Assembly: GCA_014237915.1 (NCBI GenBank)
Contig: JABACC010000007.1
Coordinates: 1,446 to 65,445 of the forward strand
Direction: 5' to 3'
Length of the DNA stretch: 64,000 nucleotides
Source of the DNA: Candidatus Paceibacter sp.
Lineage (GTDB): Bacteria; Patescibacteriota; Minisyncoccia; Phycocordibacterales; GCA-2747955
This document shows positions 4,362 through 57,413 of the stretch, piece after piece. The translations under genes were made by a program, and so were the position numbers. The notes beneath the pieces were generated by a model, which was not told the DNA's origin, ran no database searches, and saw nothing but the letters and a program-made list of their open reading frames with translations. Numbering within the stretch: position 1 is the first letter of the stretch; the number at the start of each line of letters is the position of its first letter.

Positions 4362-4426
4362 AAAAGCCCTAAAAGGCTTTTGCGAAGGCTCGAGGCAAAA
4401 CCCTCGAGCCAAAAATATTTTTTGAT

Positions 4427-4609
4427 TTAGGTTTTGAAAAAATATTGTTCAAGTTTTTTCAGAGCCTTCCAGAACGTCACTACAGCAAGGGTCCCAATAA
4501 TAACCCAGAACCATATAATAGACGCAAAGTGGGAAAAAGTTATCCCCACTAATAATTGAAACTCGGAACTAAAAAATGAAAATATTTCCATTTTTTTATC
4601 CTTTCTCAC
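4427..4609 (-). CDS. Small hydrophobic protein (hypothetical)
   Basis: 60-aa ORF with one or two predicted TM helices. No recognisable motif. Confidence 0.2.
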   Translation of the reverse strand: MRKDKKMEIFSFFSSEFQLLVGITFSHFASIIWFWVIIGTLAVVTFWKALKKLEQYFFKT

Positions 4610-4727
4610 AGTTTGTTCCCCGCTATTTTAATTATATTATTTTTTTTAAAAAAGTCAAAGAAAATATTTACTTTTTCCACAACTTTTCCAATTTTTATTT
4701 AAAAAAAAACCATCAAGTTTTGCAAGT

Positions 4728-4770
4728 TTTTTTGAGTGGATTTTGCTGAAGGCAAAATCCACTCAAAAAA
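4728..4770. terminator. Palindromic GNRA-loop hairpin (family member 2), probable bidirectional terminator
   Basis: tttttttgagtggattttgc-tgaag-gcaaaatccactcaaaaaa. T-run upstream and A-run downstream make the whole element palindromic. Confidence 0.45.
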
Positions 4771-4783
4771 TATAAAAATAAAT

Positions 4784-8187: not shown

Positions 8188-8288
8188 AAATAAAATTATT
8201 TTAAAAAAAATAAAAAATTTTTTTAGAAAATTTTTAATAAAAACAAACAAAATACTTATAAAGTATTTTTTTTGTTATAATATTTTTA

Positions 8289-9821
8289 ATGAGCTTTTCA
8301 AAAATTTATTCAACAGGTTTTTCTTCTCTAAAATCTTTTATTATTGAAATTGAAACAGATATTTCAAAAAAAGGTTTACCTTCTTTTAAAATTGTTGGCC
8401 TTGCCGACAAAGCTGTGGAAGAGTCAAGAGAAAGAGTTTTAACCGCGTTAAAAAATATCGGGTATCCAGAATTTAAAAGATGGAAAATTGTAACCTCCTT
8501 TTCTCCGGCCGATTTGAAAAAAGAAGGCCCTATTTTTGATTTAGGGATAGCAGTTTCTCTTTTAATGTCTGGAGAAGAAATAGACTTTTTAAATGAAGGA
8601 AAAATTTTCTTAGGCGAACTTTCTCTTGACGGAAGGGTAAAAAAAATCAAAGGTGTTTTGCCGATGATACGAGAAGCTAAAAAAAGAAATTTTACATCTA
8701 TTTATTTGCCAGAAAAAAATGCTCTTGAAGCTTCTTATGTTGAAGGAGTTAAAATTTTTCCTGTAAAAAATCTTAAAGAGCTTTTAGAACATTTAAATCA
8801 AGAAAAAAAAGAAAAAAAAGATATCAAAAAAATTATTTTTCCTTATAAAAAAAATGAAAATGAAAAAGAAGAAGAGAAAAGTTTTTCTTCCGAAGTTGAT
8901 TTTGAAGATATTAAGGGAAATGAATTTTCGAAAAGGGCAATTTTAATTGCAGCTTCGGGCGGACACAATCTTTCAATGTATGGAAGAGCGGGGGTGGGAA
9001 AAACAATGATGGCAAGAGCAATGTGTGGAATTTTACCAGAGCTTTCAAATGAAGAAGCTTTGGAGGTTTCTGAAATTTATTCTGTTTCTGGTCTTTTGGA
9101 GAAAAATATTATTAAAACTCCTCCTTTTTTTGCCCCGCACCATACTTCTTCTTATGTTTCGATTATTGGCGGCGGGGCTGACTTAAAACCCGGAGCAGTG
9201 ACACTTGCCCACAGAGGAATTTTGTTTATGGATGAGTTTCCAGAATTTGATAGAAGAGTTTTAGAGTCACTCAGAGAGCCTTTGGAAGACGGTTTTGTAA
9301 ATATTTCAAGAGCAAAAGGAAGTGTTTGTTTTCCAGCAAATTTTATTTTAGTAACTGCCTTTAATCCGCCAAGTGAAGTTTCAAGAGGGCAATATATAAA
9401 ACCATCAGAAATTGCAAAATTTCAGAAAAAAATTTCTGGCCCAATAATGGACAGAATTGATCTTTGGTGTGAGGTGGAAAAAGTTTCAGAGGAAAAACTT
9501 AGAGAAAACAAAAAAGGAGAAAACTCAAAAAATATAAAAGAAAAAGTAAAAAAAGCTAGAAAAATTCAAGAAAAAAGATTTGGAAAAACTGGGAAAACAA
9601 ACGCAAGCGCTAAACCAAAAGAAATTCAAGAAAATTTTTTTATAACAGAAAAATCCTACGAGCTTTTGGATGAGGCTTCAAAAAAAATGGATTTTTCATC
9701 AAGGGTTTATCACAAAATATTAAAAATAGCACGAACTTTGGCAGATCTTGAAGAGAAAAAAAACGTTGAAGAAAAACATATTTTAGAAGCTTTACAGTTT
9801 AGACCAAAAGAAATAATTTAA
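8289..9821 (+). CDS. comM: Mg-chelatase-like AAA+ ATPase, YifB/ComM family
   Basis: N-terminal Lon-protease-like domain (FKIVGLADKAVEESRERV). Walker A GRAGVGKTMMARA, Walker B ILFMDEFPEF. C-terminal Mg-chelatase subunit ChlI-type helical domain. Confidence 0.85.
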   Translation: MSFSKIYSTGFSSLKSFIIEIETDISKKGLPSFKIVGLADKAVEESRERVLTALKNIGYPEFKRWKIVTSFSPADLKKEGPIFDLGIAVSLLMSGEEIDFLNEGKIFLGELSLDGRVKKIKGVLPMIREAKKRNFTSIYLPEKNALEASYVEGVKIFPVKNLKELLEHLNQEKKEKKDIKKIIFPYKKNENEKEEEKSFSSEVDFEDIKGNEFSKRAILIAASGGHNLSMYGRAGVGKTMMARAMCGILPELSNEEALEVSEIYSVSGLLEKNIIKTPPFFAPHHTSSYVSIIGGGADLKPGAVTLAHRGILFMDEFPEFDRRVLESLREPLEDGFVNISRAKGSVCFPANFILVTAFNPPSEVSRGQYIKPSEIAKFQKKISGPIMDRIDLWCEVEKVSEEKLRENKKGENSKNIKEKVKKARKIQEKRFGKTGKTNASAKPKEIQENFFITEKSYELLDEASKKMDFSSRVYHKILKIARTLADLEEKKNVEEKHILEALQFRPKEII

Positions 9822-9980
9822 TTTTTTCTTGCATTTTTTATTTTTTACATAGAATATAAAAAAATTTGATCTTTTTAAAAAAAACAAGAAAGTAATATTT
9901 TTTTCGACCCTATCCTGTAAAAATATTAAACTTTCTTGTTTAGACAAGAAATAGTTAAGTCCTTGTATTTCTTGTCAAAC

Positions 9981-10024
9981 TAGCCCCTCTACTGAATTAT
10001 GAGTTTGGTGGAGGGGTTTTTATT
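9981..10024 (+). terminator. GC-rich hairpin + T-run (terminator-like) in the comM/ATPase intergenic region
   Basis: cccctctactgaattatgagtttggtggaggggtttttatttt. The GC-rich stem is unusual against the AT-rich background. Confidence 0.4.
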
Positions 10025-10173
10025 TTAATTTAAAAATATTTTTGATTTTTAAATTTTTAGTACAAAATAGCTGTGAGCAGAACTTACTTGTTTTGTTTTG
10101 CTCGGCGAGATGGTTTGAGATAAGATACTCACTATACCCCCCAATCAGCATCTTGAGCTGTCTCGTCACTACC

Positions 10174-10200
10174 CTCTATTTAAACAATAGGGGTTTTTTA
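10174..10200 (+). terminator. Second GC-rich hairpin + T-run closing a GC-richer untranslated segment
   Basis: ccctctatttaaacaatagggg followed by ttttttatttt. Its stem sequence is related to the 9981-10024 hairpin. Confidence 0.4.
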
Positions 10201-10240
10201 TTTTAAAAAATTTTTCTTTATTTTTTGCTATAATTATTTT

Positions 10241-13200
10241 ATGGAAAAAGAATTTTTTGGTGAGAAAATAATAAAAACCCCCGAGCAAGATAAAGAATTT
10301 TTTAATACTAATTTAAATTTAAACTCTCAAGAAAAATATAATTCTTCTTTTGGAAACTTAAACGAAAAAAAAGCTGAAGCTGTTGCTCGCGATGTTTTGG
10401 AAAAATATCCAAAAGAGGCTATAAGTTTAGCTTCTCCTGAATATTTAAATAAAAAAAATAGTGCAGAAGCCATCGTTTTAAAACTTTCTCCAGATGAAGA
10501 TGATAAAAAAATGGAAGAATTTCTATCTTTAATTAATAAGGTTGGAATTTTAAACACAATTAATGCAATTGAAAAAACAGAATCTTTCCACATTAAAGAT
10601 GATTTTCACAGATTTTTAGTTCAGTATTTAAAATCTGGATATCAACCAAAAAAATTAAAAGAAAAAGAGCCGTTTTTTATTTCTTTAAAAAGAACTTTAT
10701 TTAAAATTCAAATCCCAAATTCTGCAGAAGAGGAAGATAAAAATAAAAATTTAAAAGAATTACTTTCTTCAATGGAACAATTTTTTTCTGGAATGTTTGC
10801 TGTTTCTTCTGCTGAGGAAGAAAATTATTTTTCTTTAGAAATCGCACTGGCGCAAAACTCAGACGAAGTTGATTTTTACTGTGCCATTCCAGACGGAAAA
10901 GAAAATATTTTTAAAAATCAGCTTTTAGCAGTTTTTCCAAAAGCCAAAATTTTAGAAGCCAGTGATGACTACAATATTTTCAATAAAAAAAAACTTGTAG
11001 CAGGGTCTTTTGCAAAATTAAAAAAAAATGATTTTTTTCCTCTAACAACTTATAAAAATTTAGACTATGATCCTTTAAATTTAATCATTCAAGCTTTTTC
11101 TAATTTAAAAAAAGAGGAAGGCGCTGCCATTCAGATTAATTTAAAAACTCCGAAAAAACCTTTTTCAGAAAAAGTTAGAAAAGCTATAAAACAAGTAGAC
11201 GAAGGAAAAGATGTAAACGAAATAGTCTCTAAAAAAACTTCTTTTTTAGTAGATTTAAATAATAAAATTTACAATACTTTTTTAGCCTCAAATAAAAATG
11301 AAGAAAAATCAGGCTCAAGTGAAGAAAAAAATTTTTTCTTAGAGCAATTAAAAGAAAAAAATTCTTCTTCTGTTTTTGAAGCCAATATAAATATTGTCTC
11401 GGCTGGAGAAACAGAGCGGGGAGCTTTGCAAATTCTTTCTGCCATTGAAGCTGCTTTTATGCAGTTTGAAAATCCTGCTGGGAACAGTCTTTTTTTTGAA
11501 AAAGTTGATGGAAAAAAATTACAAAAATTAATTAAAAATTTTACTTATAGAATTTTTGATAAAAAAAATATTTTAAATTTAAATATTTCTGAACTTTCAT
11601 CTTTTTTTCATTTTCCTAAAAAAACTTTGGAAGCAGGAGAAACCCTGTCTTCAGGAGCCAGTGTTTCTTCTGGAGTAGACTTAAAATTAAAGAAAATTTC
11701 AGAAGAAGCTTTGGAAGATTTTCAAGGCTCAAGTTTTTCTGCTCCAGAAAAAAAAGTAGAAAATGAAAAAGTAGAAGCAAAAAATTTTCCTTCGGAAAAT
11801 TTTTCATCTCAAAAAGACAATAATTTAAAAAATATTTCTGAAGATAATTTTCAAGAAAAAGAAAATGAACTTTCTTATAGTTTGGGGAAGGTTGATGATT
11901 TTGAAGAAAAAATTTCAAAAAAAAGTTTTGAGGAAGAGAAAAAAAGGAATGATAATTATGAAAAATTTCAAGAAAAAAAACCAGAAGAAAAAATAAACTT
12001 TGAGAGCGAAAAAATTGAAAAACCTGAAGAGGAATTTTTCCCACAAAAAAAATCAACAGGAAAAATTTTACTTGGAATAAACGAGCACCAAGGAGAAGAA
12101 ACAAAAATTTTTATGAATGAAATCGATAGAATGAGACACCTTTATGTTATTGGGCAAACAGGAACAGGAAAAACAACTCTTTTAAAAAATGCCATAATTC
12201 AAGATATTGAAAATGGAGAAGGGGTTTGCTTTATTGATCCTCACGGCTCAGATATTGAAGATATTTTGAAAAATATTCCGCCAGAACGAGCAAAAGATGT
12301 TGTTTATTTTGATCCATCTGATATGAAAAAAGTTGTTGGTTTAAATATGCTTGAATATGACAAAAATTTTCCCGAGCAAAAAACTTTTGTTGTTGACGAA
12401 ATGCTCTCTATTTTTAATAAACTTTTCGATATGAAAGCAACAGGAGGCCCAATGTTTGAACAATATTTTAGAAACGCTGTAATGCTCACCATTGAAGATC
12501 CAGAATCAGGCTCAACCCTTTTAGATGTTTCAAGGGTTTTGTCTGACTCTGAATTTAGAGAAATGAAATTATCAAAATCTAAAAATTTAATTACAAACCA
12601 ATTTTGGCAAAAAATTGCCCAACAGGCGCAAGGAGAGGCAAGCCTTGAAAATATTGTTCCCTACATAACTTCTAAATTTGATAATTTTTTATCAAATGAC
12701 ATTATGAGACCAATAATTGCTCAGCAAAAATCATCTTTAAATTTTAGAAAAATAATGGACGAGAAAAAAATTCTTCTTGTAAATTTATCAAAAGGAAGAT
12801 TGGGCGAGCTAAACGCTCATCTTTTAGGGCTTATTATTGTTGGAAAAATTTTAATGGCTGCTTTATCTAGGGTTGATTCTGATATAAAAAATCTCCCTCC
12901 TTTTTATCTTTATATAGACGAGTTTCAAAATATTACAACTGATTCAATTTCTCAAATTTTGTCTGAGGCAAGAAAATACAAACTTTCTTTAAATATTGCT
13001 CACCAATATATTTCTCAAATTGATGAAGATATAAAAAATGCTGTTTTTGGAAATGTGGGATCTTTGGCTGTTTTTCGTGTTGGCTCTGAGGATGCAGAAT
13101 TTTTGGAAAAACAATTTTTACCAACATTTTCTAGTAAAGATATTATTGGGCTTAAAAATCACAATGCTTATATAAAATTACTTGTTGGGGGAGAGCCAGT

Positions 13201-13348
13201 TAAACCTTTTAATATAAAAACTCTGGCACCAGAAGAAGGGTCAGAGCTTAATTTAATTAGAGCAAAAGAAATTTCTTCAGAAAAATATGGTAGAGAAAAA
13301 GCTCTCGTTGATAGAGAAATTGAAGAAAAATTTAGACAATTGATTTAA
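10241..13348 (+). CDS. Conjugation/T4SS-type P-loop ATPase (VirB4/TrbE- or VirD4/TraG-family) with a roughly 600-aa N-terminal non-ATPase region
   Basis: Walker A YVIGQTGTGKTT closely followed by CFIDPHGSD (the IDP(K/H)GE motif of the HerA/VirB4/TraG clade). Walker B FYLYIDEF, then EARKYKLSLNIAHQ and VFRVGSEDAEFL, reminiscent of TraG/TraD C-terminal motifs. No searches run. Confidence 0.55.
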   Translation: MEKEFFGEKIIKTPEQDKEFFNTNLNLNSQEKYNSSFGNLNEKKAEAVARDVLEKYPKEAISLASPEYLNKKNSAEAIVLKLSPDEDDKKMEEFLSLINKVGILNTINAIEKTESFHIKDDFHRFLVQYLKSGYQPKKLKEKEPFFISLKRTLFKIQIPNSAEEEDKNKNLKELLSSMEQFFSGMFAVSSAEEENYFSLEIALAQNSDEVDFYCAIPDGKENIFKNQLLAVFPKAKILEASDDYNIFNKKKLVAGSFAKLKKNDFFPLTTYKNLDYDPLNLIIQAFSNLKKEEGAAIQINLKTPKKPFSEKVRKAIKQVDEGKDVNEIVSKKTSFLVDLNNKIYNTFLASNKNEEKSGSSEEKNFFLEQLKEKNSSSVFEANINIVSAGETERGALQILSAIEAAFMQFENPAGNSLFFEKVDGKKLQKLIKNFTYRIFDKKNILNLNISELSSFFHFPKKTLEAGETLSSGASVSSGVDLKLKKISEEALEDFQGSSFSAPEKKVENEKVEAKNFPSENFSSQKDNNLKNISEDNFQEKENELSYSLGKVDDFEEKISKKSFEEEKKRNDNYEKFQEKKPEEKINFESEKIEKPEEEFFPQKKSTGKILLGINEHQGEETKIFMNEIDRMRHLYVIGQTGTGKTTLLKNAIIQDIENGEGVCFIDPHGSDIEDILKNIPPERAKDVVYFDPSDMKKVVGLNMLEYDKNFPEQKTFVVDEMLSIFNKLFDMKATGGPMFEQYFRNAVMLTIEDPESGSTLLDVSRVLSDSEFREMKLSKSKNLITNQFWQKIAQQAQGEASLENIVPYITSKFDNFLSNDIMRPIIAQQKSSLNFRKIMDEKKILLVNLSKGRLGELNAHLLGLIIVGKILMAALSRVDSDIKNLPPFYLYIDEFQNITTDSISQILSEARKYKLSLNIAHQYISQIDEDIKNAVFGNVGSLAVFRVGSEDAEFLEKQFLPTFSSKDIIGLKNHNAYIKLLVGGEPVKPFNIKTLAPEEGSELNLIRAKEISSEKYGREKALVDREIEEKFRQLI

Positions 13349-16122: not shown

Positions 16123-16202
16123 AATTAAATTTTTAAGTTATTTATATTTTCAGATTATAACAGAAAAAAAAGTAAATATTTAAATTTTTTGGATTTTTAT
16201 AT

Positions 16203-16247
16203 TTTTTTGTGGCGGATTTGCCGAAGGCAAATCCGCCACAAAAAAAT
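16203..16247. terminator. Palindromic GNRA-loop hairpin (family member 3)
   Basis: tttttttgtggcggatttgcc-gaag-gcaaatccgccacaaaaaaa, between divergent yidC (-) and pilB (+). Confidence 0.45.
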
Positions 16248-16289
16248 ATAAAAATAAAATTTTTTAAAAAAACATAGTATAATTAAATT

Positions 16290-29200: not shown

Positions 29201-30201
29201 CTGAAAAACTTGTTTTACATGATCCAGGACCAGCTAATTTTTCAGTAGGTTGGGAAAATCTTAAAGATGAGCTTAGGAGCGAAGGTTACAGAGGAGGTTG
29301 CAATATTATAGATGTTCCCTACGATTGGAGGTTAGAAATTCCAGAAATTAGAGATTTATACCTAATCCCTTGGATCGAAGAAGCAAAAAGACTAACAGGT
29401 AAAGATGAAGTTGATATTGTAGCTCATTCAATGGGCGGGCTTGTGGCCAGATCTTTTATTCAATCTTCAAAACATTTAAACGAAGTGAGAAATTTTGTAA
29501 TGGTAGGAACTCCAAACTCTGGCTCAGCCTCAACTTATCCTATCTGGGAAGGAGGGGATCCAATTTTAGTAGATAAAAATACTCAAGATTTATCAACTAT
29601 TGGAGGATATGTATCAAAGTATTTTTACACCAACACTATAAATAAAAATTATAAAAAAGTTATCGAAGATAAAGATTTATGCATTTGGGAATCAGGATTT
29701 TTACCTGCTCCAATTTATTGCAACAAAGAAAAAGTTTATGATTTTTTACATACATACTCTCCTTCTGTTGGAAACTTAATGCCAACATACCCCGGAGCTT
29801 TAAAAGATCATCTTAGCGAAGCAGATTTAAATATATCAGCTGAGCCAAATAATTTTCTTCTTGCTTTAAATAGTGGAGGAGATTACGGCAGAGATACATA
29901 TATTCACCCAGACGATATTAATAATAAAATATCAGGAGAGAGTATTCTTTTTTATGGAGATAATTTTGATACAATAGAAAATATAAAGGTAGATCAAAGC
30001 TTTTCTCATCAATTTTTGTATCAAGATGGAAAACCTTCTGGCCTAGATTTTATAATTAAAAATCAAGGAGACAAGACAGTTCCTAAAGTCTCAATACCGA
30101 TAGGTAATATTAATTTATCTTCTGATGTTTCAGATCAGGAACACGGGCGACTTATAAATGATTTAAAAGAAGAAATTGTTGAGTTTATTAATAATAATTA
30201 A
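26251..30201 (+). CDS. Giant secreted surface protein with C-terminal LCAT-like alpha/beta-hydrolase (phospholipase/acyltransferase) domain
   Basis: 1316 aa. N-terminal signal peptide (FLTPFISFGADIY). Roughly 900 aa of Asn/Gly/Tyr-rich repetitive beta-type sequence. C-terminal domain with PYDWR (the LCAT/PDAT-family YDWR motif), nucleophile elbow VAHSMGGLVAR (GxSxG), and downstream Asp/His candidates. Confidence 0.6.
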   Translation: MANRSFKIFLTLVFFLTPFISFGADIYLQKDNALWSDPTAWSGGVLPTSSDNVYLKKEDGTEFDKITIDSVATYLSMDASNIKEIDVKYNLYRSIEAPNSIVNFYNGSNQIASSNFKIKAKEIYFKEGTVEIIRYPYFEADKIVVEENASIYISITALGYYNSIEIKGDLIHNGKFFGVRDFDINLDGSFINNGEMEDVHHFYISKNIENNSVLPDDFYFRYKTSTSKNHPVEIKGSEKVSLIVTNDSNNIFYFHDSVDLKNFYSYYDSSVIDTENSLSIYLEDGKSFKAEKVYGHNVYFLNNNNFHLESYGSITFSPYRLPNIYAEKSTVIIEGDGIFKEIKAKEIYFLEGIHEYPYKGNTITADNIVLEEGSYIRNNQDPYQSGVEPLTINGDVKNMGSLGDDNFIINGNLENNGNVTNFKTIKVYGDVYNNGTFQENSRGDSPTIFAYGDFYNFGTYTSRNFYSYGNIDSSDILETSINLYENVDGIHKKLSFSGDYLNSNLIIRENITLDKSVREIPFDIEDAEIIVNSNFLEVPTLKNSKLEGDFVLEVRNIIDTEALNVKVSVSNDIGGNISVKNIVLTSGDLENGVNRVSDDVVRFETLEIEENVSLEVYKRAPKLYGKILNKGTIYGLDNYQELLFIFEDFNNQGIIENEISVYFYFNKEINQTNQYFIKEGTSFSEPSVDEIKTGYSARVEDYLNQTDKEFSIWYKLPEESEWKVNYFNVDFEIPEIVVPPPEPETLEFSFSNIEDHLKNEEVEITLSAARNLQDRDSKVRRKEMYFYLSTNKGDIVYPSVVTFAEDGDYYEKEKTFSMKIDEAESDIEIYIKDSEGNLLGTSKPFSVVESGKAYFKFREDHYHRYDLDIKLGTKDYSFESTKSINLMVLPCDENLSVIPKGNIFIPSDTGLIHQEFFYLPIQVNISCDTTDTIEIAKSIPYENWVCEDSDKTPVLLLPGIMGSDTKFNLSVYPQIPKDSPAWDSEKLVLHDPGPANFSVGWENLKDELRSEGYRGGCNIIDVPYDWRLEIPEIRDLYLIPWIEEAKRLTGKDEVDIVAHSMGGLVARSFIQSSKHLNEVRNFVMVGTPNSGSASTYPIWEGGDPILVDKNTQDLSTIGGYVSKYFYTNTINKNYKKVIEDKDLCIWESGFLPAPIYCNKEKVYDFLHTYSPSVGNLMPTYPGALKDHLSEADLNISAEPNNFLLALNSGGDYGRDTYIHPDDINNKISGESILFYGDNFDTIENIKVDQSFSHQFLYQDGKPSGLDFIIKNQGDKTVPKVSIPIGNINLSSDVSDQEHGRLINDLKEEIVEFINNN

Positions 30202-30203
30202 AT
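30141..30203 (+). repeat. Junction repeat copy 1 (3' end of giant-protein CDS + RBS/start of downstream gene)
   Basis: …aatgatttaaaagaagaaattgttgagtttattaataataattaaatATG…, repeated nearly identically at 30541 and 30921. Confidence 0.8.
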
Positions 30204-30539
30204 ATGAATATTATAGAAAAAATAAATATAAAATTAATATTGTTAACAATATATATATATATATATATAAATTTAGGCGGAGCTTATTTGGTATTTCAAT
30301 TTTCTAGAAGTTCTATGTGGGGTCAAGATTTTGACAATATTTTAAGTCATTTATTAGAAGTTCTAAATACTCTTTTTAACTTAATGTATTCTAACTTTTT
30401 AATATTTTTATTATTATTTACTTTTTCTTTTTTTCTTTCCAAGTTTTTCTTAAAAAAAGAAAATAAATTATATTATATTTTATTCCACATTTTAGCCTTA
30501 CCTGCATCTTTTTTTGGGTATTTTATTTTAGTTGTATAG
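30204..30539 (+). CDS. Small polytopic membrane protein (cassette paralog A); immunity-protein-like position
   Basis: 111 aa. Conserved N-terminus MNIIEKINIKLILLTIYIYIYI and C-terminus YILFHILALPASFFGYFILVV shared with the next ORF; middle diverged. Contains (AT)10 at 30249-30269. Confidence 0.4.
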   Translation: MNIIEKINIKLILLTIYIYIYINLGGAYLVFQFSRSSMWGQDFDNILSHLLEVLNTLFNLMYSNFLIFLLLFTFSFFLSKFFLKKENKLYYILFHILALPASFFGYFILVV

Positions 30540-30540
30540 G

Positions 30541-30600
30541 TTAGTAAATGACTTAAAAGAAGAAATTGTTGAGTTTATTAATAATAATTAAATATGAATA
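30541..30600 (+). repeat. Junction repeat copy 2
   Basis: gttagtaaatgacttaaaagaagaaattgttgagtttattaataataattaaatatgaatattatag: duplicates the last roughly 50 nt of the giant CDS plus the start of the small gene. Confidence 0.8.
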
Positions 30601-30920
30601 TTATAGAAAAAATAAATATAAAATTAATATTATTAACAATATATATATATATATATATTAGTCTGGGGGGAGTTTTTGCAACAATGATATTTTCAGATTT
30701 TCGTATAGATGAATTAGTTACCGCTTTTTTTTATTCTTTTATTCCTTTTTTTATTTATATTTGGAGTAAACACTTTGTTATTTCTTTGATTTCGGTGATC
30801 ATCTCTTTTTCACTTGTTAAATTTAATATGATAAAAAAAATAAAAAAAATCTACATAATACTATTTCATATTTTAATTTTACCCCTTTCTTTTTTTGGGT
30901 ATTTTATTTTATTTGTATAG
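30594..30920 (+). CDS. Small polytopic membrane protein (cassette paralog B)
   Basis: 108 aa. Same conserved termini as paralog A with a different central segment. (AT)10 tract at 30639-30658. Confidence 0.4.
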   Translation: MNIIEKINIKLILLTIYIYIYISLGGVFATMIFSDFRIDELVTAFFYSFIPFFIYIWSKHFVISLISVIISFSLVKFNMIKKIKKIYIILFHILILPLSFFGYFILFV

Positions 30921-30980
30921 GTTAGTAAATGACTTAAAAGAAGAAATTGTTGAGTTTATAATTAATAATAATTAAATATG
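30921..30980 (+). repeat. Junction repeat copy 3 (with 5-nt insertion)
   Basis: gttagtaaatgacttaaaagaagaaattgttgagtttataattaataataattaaatATGaaaaatc… The ATG at 30976 opens a 21-codon frame that stops inside an (AT)6 tract, 1 nt out of frame with the 31010 ORF. Confidence 0.75.
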
Positions 30981-34453: not shown

Positions 34454-34487
34454 GGCGGAAAAATTGGCGAAGCCAATTTTTCCGCCG
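34454..34487. terminator. Palindromic GNRA-loop hairpin (family member 4)
   Basis: ggcggaaaaattggc-gaag-ccaatttttccgcc between the DUF427 gene and tyrS. Confidence 0.4.
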
Positions 34488-34539
34488 CACTTATTTCTAT
34501 TTTAAAAATTTTATAAAAAAAATTTGCTATAATTTAAAA

Positions 34540-35760
34540 ATGTTAAAAAATTTTTTTGAAAAAAAAATAAAAATAAATACTGATGAGAAAAAAATTTCGG
34601 AAGTTGTTTCCAGAGGCGTTGTGAAAAATTTTCCCTCTGATGAATTTTTAAGAAAAAAACTTTCTTCAGGAGTTGCTCAAAAAATTTATTTAGGAATCGA
34701 TCCGACTGGCCCAACTTTGCATATGGGGCACGCCGTTTCTTTAAAAAAATTACAAGCTCTTCAAAAAATGGGCCATAAAATTATTTTATTGATTGGGGAT
34801 TTTACTGCCCGAATTGGTGATCCTGACAAAAAAAATGTCAGATCTCAACTTTCACATAAAGAGGTTTTAGAAAACTCTAAACTTTATAAAAAACAAGCAG
34901 AAGTTTTTTTGAATTTTTCTGGAAAAAATCCAGCTTCTTTAAAATATAATCACAATTGGCTTTCTAAATTAAATTTTGAAGATGTTATAAAACTTTGTTC
35001 GAAGGTGACAGTTCAAAGAATGCTTGATAGAGATATGTTTAGAAAAAGAATGACAGAAGAAAAACCAATTTATCTTCATGAATTTTTATATCCATTAATG
35101 CAAGGTTATGACGCAGTTGCAATGGATGTAGATGGAGAAATCGGAGGAAACGACCAAACTTTTAATATGCTCACAGGGCGAGATTTAATGAAAGAATATT
35201 CAGGAAAAGAAAAATTTGTTATTCCTATGAAACTTTTAGTTGATAATTCTGGTTCCAAAATGGGAAAAACAACAGGAAACATGCTTTCTTTTTTAGATTC
35301 AGCAGACGAAATGTTTGGAAAAATTATGTCTTGGAATGATGAAATGATTGTTTTAGGATTTGAGCTTTTAACAGACAAAAATTTAGAAGAAATTACAAAA
35401 AGATTAGAAAGTGGAGAAAACCCAAAAAATTTAAAAACAGAACTTGCTTTAGAAATTATTGAAATTTTTTACAACAAAGAAAAAGCACAAAAAGCACAGA
35501 AAAATTGGCAAGCTCAGTTTTCAGAAAGAGGAATTCCGGAAAATTTAGAAGAGATAGAAATTTTAAATGGCGAGAAAATTTTAGAGGTTTTGAAAAAAGC
35601 AGAATTTATTTTTTCCAACAAAGAAGGAAAAAGAAAAATTGACGAAAAGGCAGTGCAAATTGATGGAGAAAAAATTTTAGATTATGATTTTTCTTTTAAT
35701 AAAAACGGGGAAAAAATTTTAAAACTTGGAAAAAAAATGAAAAAAATTATTATTAAATAA
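34540..35760 (+). CDS. tyrS: Tyrosyl-tRNA synthetase
   Basis: Class I signatures GIDPTGPTLHMGHAV (HIGH) and KMGKT (KMSKS). C-terminal S4-like domain. 406 aa. Confidence 0.85.
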   Translation: MLKNFFEKKIKINTDEKKISEVVSRGVVKNFPSDEFLRKKLSSGVAQKIYLGIDPTGPTLHMGHAVSLKKLQALQKMGHKIILLIGDFTARIGDPDKKNVRSQLSHKEVLENSKLYKKQAEVFLNFSGKNPASLKYNHNWLSKLNFEDVIKLCSKVTVQRMLDRDMFRKRMTEEKPIYLHEFLYPLMQGYDAVAMDVDGEIGGNDQTFNMLTGRDLMKEYSGKEKFVIPMKLLVDNSGSKMGKTTGNMLSFLDSADEMFGKIMSWNDEMIVLGFELLTDKNLEEITKRLESGENPKNLKTELALEIIEIFYNKEKAQKAQKNWQAQFSERGIPENLEEIEILNGEKILEVLKKAEFIFSNKEGKRKIDEKAVQIDGEKILDYDFSFNKNGEKILKLGKKMKKIIIK

Positions 35761-36242: not shown

Positions 36243-36287
36243 TTTTTTTGAGTGAAAATTGCTGAAAGCAATTTTCACTCAAAAAAA
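36243..36287. terminator. Palindromic GNRA-loop hairpin (family member 5)
   Basis: tttttttgagtgaaaattgc-tgaaag-caattttcactcaaaaaaa. A second canonical terminator (aaagcccgaaagggcttttt) lies at about 36348-36368. Confidence 0.45.
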
Positions 36288-42120: not shown

Positions 42121-42161
42121 TTTTTTTGATGGATTTTGCCTTCGGCAAAATCCATCAAAAA
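42121..42161. terminator. Palindromic hairpin (family member 6, UUCG-type loop)
   Basis: tttttttgatggattttgcc-ttcg-gcaaaatccatcaaaaaa, downstream of rpsR (+) and tRNA-Pro (-). Confidence 0.45.
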
Positions 42162-50634: not shown

Positions 50635-50673
50635 CAAAGATTTAAAAAAAATTAAATTTGTTATAATAATTTT

Positions 50674-51135
50674 ATGTTTAATAAAGAAAAAATTACTATA
50701 AATTTAGCCACAGATCATGCTGGATTTTCTCATAAAGAAAAAGTCAGAAAAATTTTAGAAGAGAAAAATTTTAAAGTTTATGATTTTGGCGCTTTTGAAA
50801 ATAATCCAGATGATGATTATCCAGATTTTATTTCACCCTTAGCTTCCAAAATTTCAGAAAACTCAGAAGAAAACATAGGGATAATTTTTGGAGGATCTGG
50901 GCAAGGTGAAGCAATGTGTGCAAATAGATTTAAAAATGTAAGAGCAGTTATTTTTTATGGAAATTTTGAAGAAAAAAAGGAAATTTTAGAACTTTCAAGA
51001 AAACACAATAATGCAAATATTTTATCAATCGGAGCAAGGTTTGTAGCAGAAGGGGATTTAGAAAAAATCTTGAATTTTTGGCTTGAAACTAAATTTGAGG
51101 GTGGAAGACACTTAAGAAGAATTGAAAAATTTTAA
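50674..51135 (+). CDS. rpiB: Ribose-5-phosphate isomerase B (RpiB/LacAB family)
   Basis: …INLATDHAGF… GIIFGGSGQGEAMCANR… motifs. 153 aa. Confidence 0.85.
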   Translation: MFNKEKITINLATDHAGFSHKEKVRKILEEKNFKVYDFGAFENNPDDDYPDFISPLASKISENSEENIGIIFGGSGQGEAMCANRFKNVRAVIFYGNFEEKKEILELSRKHNNANILSIGARFVAEGDLEKILNFWLETKFEGGRHLRRIEKF

Positions 51136-53812: not shown

Positions 53813-53842
53813 ATATGGCTTTGTTTTTGCTATAATTTCAAA

Positions 53843-55360
53843 ATGTTAAAAAAGTTTCTAATTTTTTTAGATAATACAACAATGTATCGATTAACTTTAG
53901 TCTGTCTTTTTTTAATTTCCATATTTTCTCTATTTTTTTCTTTTTTTGGTTTAATTTATTATCCAATATTTAATTTATTTTTCTCTCTCGGAGTTATTTT
54001 GCTTTCTTGTGTTTTTTTTCATTATCTTTTTTCTTTTTTAAAAAAAGCTCCTTCAAACATTGAATCAACTTTAATTTCAGCTTTTTTAATTTTTTTAATT
54101 TTTGACCCGTTTTTTAACTCAGAAGGTTTGTTTTCTTTAGTTTTAATTTCATTTTTAACAATCGCCTCAAAATATTTAATCGTTTATAGAAAAAATCATT
54201 TTATAAATCCTGTTATTTTTGGAGCAGTTTTAATTTCTCTCTTGGGTTTAAATTATGCAACTTGGTGGGTGGCAAACCCATATCTTTTTTTACCAGTTTT
54301 AATTTTAGGTTTTTTATTAATTTACAAAATTAGAAAAATTGAAATGGCAGTAACATTTATTTTAAGTTCATTTATTTTTTCTTTTTTAGTTTTATTTTTT
54401 GAAAATTCTTTAGATTTTTCTTTTTTTTATACTTTTTTCTTAGCTTGGCCTATTTTATTTTTTTCTTTTTTCATGCTTACAGAACCTATAGGAATTCCCT
54501 CGGAAAGAAAAAATCAGATTTTTTATGCAATTTTAGTGGGAGCCCTCTCTTCTGTATCTTTTTCTTTTTTATTTTTTAATTCTTCTTTTGAAATGTCACT
54601 TTTTTTAGCCAATCTTTTGTTTTTTTTCTTTTTTCAAAAATCAGGAAAATTTATTTTGAAGTTAAAAGAAATTAAAAAAGTTTCTGAAAATAGTTTTTTA
54701 TATATTTTTTCTCGTCCAAAAAATTTAAACTTCAAAGCAGGACAATATTTAGAAGCGGTTTTGCCACACAAAGAGCAAGATTCTCGGGGAGTTTCTAGAT
54801 ATTTTAGTTTAGCCTCATCTCCCACAGAAAAAGATTTGGCTTTTTTAATAAAAATGGAAAATAAAAAAAGCTCTTTTAAAGAAAAATTAAAAAATATGAA
54901 AAAAGAAGATATTCTTTTTGCTAAAAATATTTCTGGAGATTTTATTTTGAAAAAAAATGAAAAAAAGGAAATAGTTTTTGTTGCAGGAGGTGTTGGGATA
55001 ACTCCTTTTTTTTCGATGATTAAATATATTATTGATAAAAAACAGGAAAGTCAGATTAAACTTTTTTTATGTGCTCAAAACCATAATTCTATTACAAACA
55101 TTTCTCTTTTGAAAAAATGGCAAAAAGAAAACAAAAATTTAAAAATAATTTATGTTCTAGATGAAAAAACCGATTTATTAAATTGCAAAAAAGGAAGGTT
55201 AAACAAGAAAATTTTAGATGAAGAAAATGTTTCTTTTAAAGATTCTATTTTTTATATTTCAGGCCCTACGGCCATGGTTAAATCGGTAGAAAGTCTACTT
55301 AGAAATTCACAAACGCCAAAAGAAAATATTAAAACAGATTATTTTCCAGGATTTTCTTAA
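53843..55360 (+). CDS. Membrane-embedded FAD/NAD(P)-binding oxidoreductase (ferredoxin-NADP-reductase-type C-terminal domain fused to a roughly 300-aa polytopic N-terminal domain)
   Basis: C-terminal FAD_binding_6/NAD_binding_1 motifs: FKAGQYLEAVLP…RYFSLASSP (RxYS), VFVAGGVGITPFFSMI (GGxGxxP), …YISGP. The N-terminal roughly 8 TM segments are His-poor, so not a ferric-reductase heme domain. Confidence 0.55.
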   Translation: MLKKFLIFLDNTTMYRLTLVCLFLISIFSLFFSFFGLIYYPIFNLFFSLGVILLSCVFFHYLFSFLKKAPSNIESTLISAFLIFLIFDPFFNSEGLFSLVLISFLTIASKYLIVYRKNHFINPVIFGAVLISLLGLNYATWWVANPYLFLPVLILGFLLIYKIRKIEMAVTFILSSFIFSFLVLFFENSLDFSFFYTFFLAWPILFFSFFMLTEPIGIPSERKNQIFYAILVGALSSVSFSFLFFNSSFEMSLFLANLLFFFFFQKSGKFILKLKEIKKVSENSFLYIFSRPKNLNFKAGQYLEAVLPHKEQDSRGVSRYFSLASSPTEKDLAFLIKMENKKSSFKEKLKNMKKEDILFAKNISGDFILKKNEKKEIVFVAGGVGITPFFSMIKYIIDKKQESQIKLFLCAQNHNSITNISLLKKWQKENKNLKIIYVLDEKTDLLNCKKGRLNKKILDEENVSFKDSIFYISGPTAMVKSVESLLRNSQTPKENIKTDYFPGFS

Positions 55361-57203: not shown

Positions 57204-57360
57204 AAAAATTATGAAAGCTGAAAGCTTGATAAAATTTTTAATGCCAGTCGTCGGGCGATTTCTGGCAAAAACGCTGGTTAAAAATTTCACTGCGGTTTTT
57301 TGTGGAAAAATTTTCCACAAAAAACCGCAATGAAATTTTAGCAAAAATAAATATTTAAAA

Positions 57361-57413
57361 AAGGCGAAAAGAAATTTAAAAAATATTTTTTAAATTTTTT
57401 TTCGCCTTTTTTA
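57361..57413. terminator. Long AT-loop palindrome (bidirectional terminator candidate) at the 3' side of rnpB
   Basis: aaggcgaaaagaaatttaaaaaatattttttaaattttttttcgcctttttt. Confidence 0.4.

Follow-up and report, generated by a model that had tools for sequence, protein, structure and literature searches.

The spacer between comM and the downstream ATPase gene in this uncultivated, Paceibacteria-like member of the Patescibacteria is, taken as a whole, best explained by two tandem plus-strand non-coding modules, each ending in a unidirectional intrinsic terminator, a reading that we hold with slightly less than even confidence. The spacer spans positions 9822-10240 (419 nt) of the window, by which we mean the whole 64,000-nt stretch that was analysed, and lies on a contig of 27% GC. 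It is preceded by comM (8289-9821, plus strand; Pfam ChlI, Mg_chelatase and Mg_chelatase_C) and followed by a gene for a VirD4-like ATPase of 1035 aa (10241-13348, plus strand; Pfam AAA_22 and TraG-D_C, with DUF8128 in the precomputed annotation), which is a VirD4/TraD-like core protein in Patescibacteria. Three traits distinguish this spacer: its length, compared with 100-190 nt in typical co-directional spacers of the window; the imperfect, strand-specific helices that add some 250 nt 5' of the terminators; and the tRNA-like GC content of its second module. We refer to the modules as unit 1 (approximately 9860-10024) and unit 2 (approximately 10070-10200). An earlier note on this DNA had proposed one or two structured sRNAs, which is plausible and the best reading so far: two plus-strand, terminator-ended, structured non-coding modules are present as proposed, while an Rfam family, a homologue and a canonical promoter were not found for either. 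It is plausible that the units are lineage-specific small RNAs, or that they represent a 3' tail of comM plus one small RNA.

There is no credible open reading frame in 9822-10240, in agreement with the description of the interval as ORF-free in the earlier note. Spacer ORFs of at least 20 aa start only with TTG or GTG, and a Pfam search of these small ORFs returned zero matches. Their GC content at third codon positions is 0.42-0.45, versus 0.16-0.20 in the real genes of the window, and the codon-position GC pattern is inverted. Because of these start codons, the negative Pfam result and a third-position pattern unlike that of real genes, we consider the spacer region to be non-coding.

The GC content of the interval, described earlier as well above background, is so only in unit 2 (0.38-0.44 per 100 nt). 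Unit 1, at 0.28-0.31, stands at the genome average, although this exceeds the 0.05-0.22 typical of other spacers in the window. The GC content measured over 80 nt peaks at 0.49 at 10095-10174, within unit 2, and just 1.7% of all 80-nt windows reach even 0.45. The peak is comparable to the values at the three tRNA genes of the window (0.51-0.62). Among the remaining spacers, one (4362-4783) reaches 0.45, another containing a gene with a TTG start reaches 0.41, and the rest do not exceed 0.39. Unit 2 is itself flanked by AT-rich spacers. The composition of its helices is hard to explain except through selection on RNA structure.

The other GC-enriched spacer, 4362-4783, has its maximum at 4460-4539 and carries several features on the minus strand: a strong promoter-like TTGACT-16-TATAAT (4658-4631), a possible hydrophobic ORF of 54-60 aa (4427-4609) and a terminator (4381-4362). 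The codon-position GC of this ORF is flat (0.33/0.31/0.38), and the region might encode either a small membrane protein or another non-coding RNA.

Unit 1 consists of three helices on the plus strand. The first, H1 (9882-9941), is a long A/U-rich hairpin of 21 pairs with a 2-nt bulge that is present in both the minimum free energy (MFE) and the centroid folds, and its apical region of 16 nt is C-rich (UUCGACCCUAUCCUGU). It is followed by H2 (9943-9976), a folded hairpin of 11 bp with a 12-nt loop, the arms of which (GACAAGAAAUA / UAUUUCUUGUC) are also found at the base of H1, so that ACAAGAAA occurs at both 9885 and 9946 and UUUCUUGU at both 9934 and 9968. The internal helices quoted in the earlier note, cttgtttagacaagaaa at 9936-9952 and cttgtatttcttgtc at 9962-9976, are indeed there. 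Because of the repetition of arms between H1 and H2, an alternative hairpin is possible at 9934-9952; since it leaves H3 untouched, there is no obvious attenuator in this arrangement. H3 (9982-10028), found by both the terminator scan and the fold, is an intrinsic (Rho-independent) terminator, in which a stem-loop at 9982-10018 with 17 pairs, six of them G-C and several G·U, is followed by UUUUUAUUUU, with the U-tract TTTTTATTTT. It is the first terminator past the comM stop codon, comM having no earlier one.

Unit 2 has the same number of helices, again on the plus strand. Folding predicts a 9-bp hairpin, H4 (10075-10103; GAGCAGAAC...GUUUUGCUC), closed by an 11-nt U-rich loop, and then H5 (10104-10167), an 18-bp helix with six G·U pairs, which because of these pairs forms only in the plus-strand RNA. 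The apical region of H5, 28 nt in length, bears ACCCCCCAAUCAGC. The paired segments gctgtgagc, gctcggcgag and gagctgtctcg to which attention had been drawn earlier correspond to the base of H4 and the arms of H5. The last helix, H6 (10171-10203), identified by the terminator scan and by folding, is likewise an intrinsic terminator, with a stem-loop at 10171-10194 followed by UUUUUUAUUUU and the U-tract TTTTTTATTTT. It is an orphan terminator, located 350 nt past the comM stop codon and 3' of H3, without an upstream ORF. In being non-coding and in having its own terminator that is not attributable to any upstream ORF, unit 2 resembles an independent bacterial sRNA gene.

The two terminator-like hairpins with a common core described in the earlier note were recovered both by the terminator scan and by motif counts. 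The scan reported two plus-strand sites in the spacer (9982-10018, 17 pairs, and 10173-10193, 8 pairs), whereas 0.4 +/- 0.6 were expected from shuffled sequences. Of the three copies of CCCTCTA in the window, two lie in the spacer, and AGGGGTTTTT, common to both terminators, occurs just twice in the window, both times within the spacer. The sharing of this core by H3 and H6 exceeds chance. The likeness of the two units does not extend further: a global alignment shows it in the terminator arms alone, and we have rejected the idea that units 1 and 2 are paralogous.

Folding energies are well below those of shuffled sequences for unit 1 (H1-H3; -51.4 kcal/mol, z = -8.0), for unit 2 (H4-H6, 10075-10199; -43.4 kcal/mol, z = -5.2) and for the spacer as a whole (z = -8.0), and in none of the three did any shuffle match the native energy. 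The MFE helices contain 12 G·U pairs, five in unit 1 and seven in unit 2 (including the six of H5), and the reverse complements fold worse by 12.5 kcal/mol for unit 1 and 9.5 kcal/mol for unit 2. We assign the structure to the plus-strand RNA because of these G·U pairs and this energetic advantage over the reverse complement. Several other intergenic regions in the window have z scores of -10 to -15, which are due to palindromic terminators of 20-30 bp, sometimes in tandem. Since strong hairpins are thus common in the spacers of this genome, structure alone constitutes weak evidence. H3 and H6 differ from the usual terminators of the window, which are long perfect palindromes and bidirectional; the upstream A-run that marks a bidirectional terminator is absent at both H3 and H6.

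These perfect palindromes of 20-30 bp, flanked by an A-run and a T-run and resembling bidirectional terminators, were observed in many spacers, sometimes in tandem. Examples are found at 2443-2481, 4729-4769, 16193-16253 and 42131-42153, and further ones at 2377-2419, 34454-34486, 36243-36287, 57289-57331 and 57362-57407. An exact core, GGATTTTGC-loop-GCAAAATCC, occurs in at least two of the palindromes, and close variants in two others. This common core suggests a family of repeated elements.

Gene starts in the window provide the context for judging whether the units have promoters. A Shine-Dalgarno (SD)-like motif precedes just 2 of the 66 genes, and TAnAAT ends 6-9 nt before the ATG in 26 of the 66, as against 3.8% of all ATG triplets; the distance is exactly 6 nt in 14 genes, and 17 genes have the TGn extension. 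The genome thus appears, as far as these motifs indicate, to be largely leaderless and SD-free, with extended -10 promoters. The ATPase gene is an example, its extended -10 promoter (10226-10243, plus strand) consisting of a TGCTATAAT box at 10226-10234, 3' of H6, that ends 6 nt before the ATG at 10241; this element lies outside the RNA and marks the boundary of the feature. The ATPase homologue at locus L167 has the same layout of box and ATG, as do gene starts in loci L170 and L173. Further instances of the leaderless layout were noted in the window (8273-8291, 34525-34542, 50659-50676 and 53828-53845, besides that of the ATPase gene) and in relatives (L167, 3985-4003; L170, 10153-10167; L173, 7541-7557). 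A full-text literature search found no paper describing a leaderless, SD-free layout for Patescibacteria or the Candidate Phyla Radiation (CPR).

The spacer contains no TGnTAnAAT promoter other than that of the ATPase gene, so that neither unit is preceded by one, and this counts against their independent transcription. The tRNA-Ser gene in the window, for its part, has a plain -35/-10 pair, TTGAAA-17-TAAAAT, and RNA genes therefore need not obey the promoter rule of mRNAs. Weak promoter-like sequences can be read on the plus strand upstream of unit 1 (TTGCAT-N15-TAGAAT, 9829-9855) and upstream of unit 2 (TTGATT-N15-CAAAAT, 10042-10068), from which transcription might start, although both are unremarkable in such AT-rich DNA. 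The former is not of the TGnTAnAAT type and was missed by the promoter scan, which requires a spacer of 16-18 nt.

Database searches did not assign either unit to a known family. A scan of the whole window with Rfam 15 at gathering thresholds, the check proposed by the earlier note, reported three tRNAs only, while in permissive E-value scans (9700-10400 and 10040-10215) no hit in the spacer region exceeded 30 bits, and none for unit 2 exceeded 18 bits. The sub-threshold matches of unit 1 were to the PyrR-binding site (29.3 bits, cut-off 54) and to SpF39 (29.6 bits, cut-off 60). ARAGORN detected neither a tRNA nor a tmRNA in the spacer. No match was obtained in viral contigs with exact-pattern scans or in phage and plasmid collections with blastn, and no repeat copy of the spacer element was found elsewhere in the window.

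The comparison with relatives drew on 80 loci around comM relatives, 80 metagenome loci around ATPase relatives and eleven look-ups of the closest relatives (eight for ComM and three for the full-length ATPase). The closest relatives of both proteins come from metagenome-assembled genomes (MAGs) of Patescibacteria throughout. In a database of 5.8 billion proteins, the nearest ComM besides the source is 61% identical, and because no closer relative is available, covariation cannot be assessed. An ENA scaffold (BUSC20-1_SAMN14422900 scaffold_178, assembly ERZ23487945) carries the same genes and a spacer that is base-for-base identical to that of the window; as it represents the same genome, it offers no strain variation for comparison. 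Neither blastn nor nhmmer detected any similarity to the spacer in the loci of comM and ATPase relatives. Single-sequence covariance models of unit 2 (R1) and unit 1 (R2), run over 174 loci (about 1.6 Mb of Patescibacteria sequence), retrieved generic terminator hairpins only, at 25 bits or less, and R1 run over the window with filters off gave the same result. In the seven closest relatives for which we read it, at 55-61% ComM identity, the spacer downstream of comM is an unrelated sequence. None of these approaches (blastn, nhmmer, R1 and R2) thus revealed conservation of the structure in relatives, a test of low power because the nearest relatives are so distant (ComM identity of 61% or less). 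The adjacency of comM and the ATPase gene is itself unique to the source genome among the relatives examined.

Several observations were made in passing on these loci and on the window. The ATPase is widely conserved in Patescibacteria: of 8000 candidates scored, at least 545 were relatives at E <= 1e-20, and the C-terminal 41% shows 62-71% identity. The ATPase gene of many relatives (loci L086-L164) comes directly after an ORF of 260-275 aa, a linkage that is broken in the source genome. In a Campbellbacteria MAG (locus L083, 7570-7945), a motif of about 22 nt (ACGTATGTGTTATTACGTTGA-like) occurs three times, in direct as well as inverted orientation, in a 460-nt spacer 3' of comM that also contains a GC-rich terminator; this motif bears no sequence relation to the spacer element of the window. 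The window also includes a tandem duplication (30155-30285 / 30545-30675 and 30451-30588 / 30832-30969; 94% and 83% identity), which spans two ORFs of about 110 aa (30204-30539 and 30594-30920) with identical 40-nt upstream regions.

The main rival account of the spacer would be that it serves for termination and insulation only, its tandem terminators and incidental AT-rich hairpins stopping comM transcription and guarding the ATPase promoter with no functional RNA involved. We regard this as possible though somewhat unlikely. Tandem stable terminators do occur in other co-directional spacers (for example 2377-2419 with 2443-2481, and 57289-57331 with 57362-57407), the lack of conservation of the element would fit, and so would that of a canonical promoter upstream of either unit. 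However, those other spacers are only 100-190 nt long and contain perfect palindromes, whereas here the structure includes a further 250 nt or so that is strand-specific and not palindromic, and the 18 bp of H5 with its six G·U pairs, like the tRNA-like GC content of unit 2, exceed what a terminator needs. Another account would treat the region as a relic, namely a decayed gene, a rearrangement scar or a fragment of a mobile element left where map, the usual upstream neighbour of the ATPase gene, was lost. Among 63 relatives, the ATPase gene is in many cases preceded by the 260-275-aa ORF mentioned above, and the ten such ORFs that we translated were mostly methionine aminopeptidase-like, which, together with the unique synteny and the unusual regional GC content, speaks for such a history. 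Against it, tblastn of map found no remnant in the spacer, repeat copies in the window and phage, plasmid and viral matches are lacking, and decay in a genome of 27% GC would not be expected to retain a stretch of 49% GC and an 18-bp helix. We therefore judge a relic to be very improbable.

The earlier note had also considered a cis-regulatory leader for the ATPase gene, which the evidence disfavours, since the ATPase box lies downstream of H6 and the homologues have no long leader. In its most explicit form, unit 2 would be an attenuator or riboswitch leader, with a transcript started upstream that either stops at H6 or reads through into the ATPase gene. The order of elements suits this proposal, in that a terminator on the same strand comes after the H4-H5 fold, 47 nt ahead of the start codon, and by inspection the GGGG of H6 could pair with the C-run in the loop of H5 instead of with CCCU, over about 5 bp. 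Most of the 63 ATPase homologues, however, lie 13-100 nt behind another gene and none has a related leader; the ATPase gene has its own TGCTATAAT-N6-ATG promoter past H6, as does the L167 homologue; no convincing antiterminator was seen beyond this short pairing, and both the MFE and the centroid structures keep H6 intact; and there is no Rfam aptamer match. A leader of this kind is in our opinion a poor prospect. The full-length alignment of 9894-10023 to the PyrR-binding site family (RF00515; 29.3 bits, E = 0.058 in a 701-nt search) raises the question of whether unit 1 is a divergent attenuator of that family, and the two do have in common the succession of hairpin, hairpin and terminator. 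Yet the score, far under the gathering cut-off and unreported in the gathering scan of the whole window, effectively refutes this identification, the alignment reflects a generic architecture in A/U-rich sequence, and no pyr gene or operon is adjacent, the flanking genes being comM and that of the VirD4-like ATPase. Unit 1 is not a member of the family, and the chance that it is even a divergent one is next to negligible.

The two-module reading resembles known systems in part. RsaE/RoxS of Firmicutes are trans-acting sRNAs that end in a Rho-independent terminator and whose C-rich loops target G-rich Shine-Dalgarno sites. The units are similar in size (about 100-160 nt), in their stem-loops with unpaired C-rich stretches followed by an intrinsic terminator, and in their location between unrelated genes; they differ in that no sequence or Rfam similarity exists and in that the genome of the window is almost SD-free (2/66 genes). 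Compared with tandem intrinsic terminators, the spacer likewise has two GC-cored hairpins with U-tracts between plus-strand genes. Unlike the other tandem terminators of this genome, which are adjacent perfect palindromes, H3 and H6 are 190 nt apart and each follows strand-specific structure. Structured 3'UTRs and sRNAs derived from 3'UTRs, such as CpxQ, SdhX and s-SodF, are a further known kind (see also PMC3919588 and bioRxiv 10.1101/2025.06.06.658255). Unit 1 is like them in lying directly 3' of comM and in sharing its terminator, H3, with that gene, whereas it is a candidate only and has no homologue 3' of comM in relatives.

If the spacer is made up of two RNA modules, H3 would terminate the comM transcript, so that module 1 would form the 3' end of that transcript and H1 and H2 a structured comM 3'UTR. 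Because comM has no terminator before H3, this is the minimum role that we would attribute to unit 1. In addition, an RNA of about 145-165 nt might build up from it, either derived from the 3'UTR or initiated separately. Module 2 would be transcribed on its own, as an orphan unit of about 125-135 nt, giving rise to a lineage-specific sRNA. Interaction surfaces are probably provided by the C-rich loops exposed in H1 (CGACCCUAUCCUG) and on the GC-rich helix H5 (ACCCCCCAAUCAGC), whether through base pairing or through protein binding. H3 and H6 may also keep read-through from reaching the leaderless ATPase promoter (TGCTATAAT-N6-ATG). Transcription of the units, their start sites and the action of their loops are thus inferred from sequence and predicted folds.

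Loop complements searched for in the window gave no match, and duplex prediction against 66 mRNA 5' ends produced a single one, between the C-run and a GGGGGG in the Gly-rich motif of a murG-like gene; we judged this match to be due to chance and do not consider the gene a target. With near-universal leaderless, SD-free starts, the usual sRNA mechanism, occlusion of the ribosome-binding site, cannot apply. If the units were genuine riboregulators in such a mostly leaderless, SD-free CPR bacterium, a proposal that we think unlikely on present evidence, their C-rich loops would instead contact either a protein partner or the coding 5' ends of leaderless mRNAs. Their targets might be connected with the functions encoded next to the spacer, namely competence (comM) and type IV secretion-like (VirD4-like) functions.

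Patescibacteria are ultrasmall, mostly uncultivated symbionts, for which very few regulators are known. The candidate described here comes from a single genome and is unconserved, and its practical value lies in the list of targets that it provides, in the form of coordinates, strand, structures and covariance models, for the mapping of metatranscriptomes. Should the units prove to be true riboregulators, they would count among the earliest sRNAs to be defined in Patescibacteria, and if they are transcribed as stable RNAs, they would offer a first handle on post-transcriptional regulation in this group.
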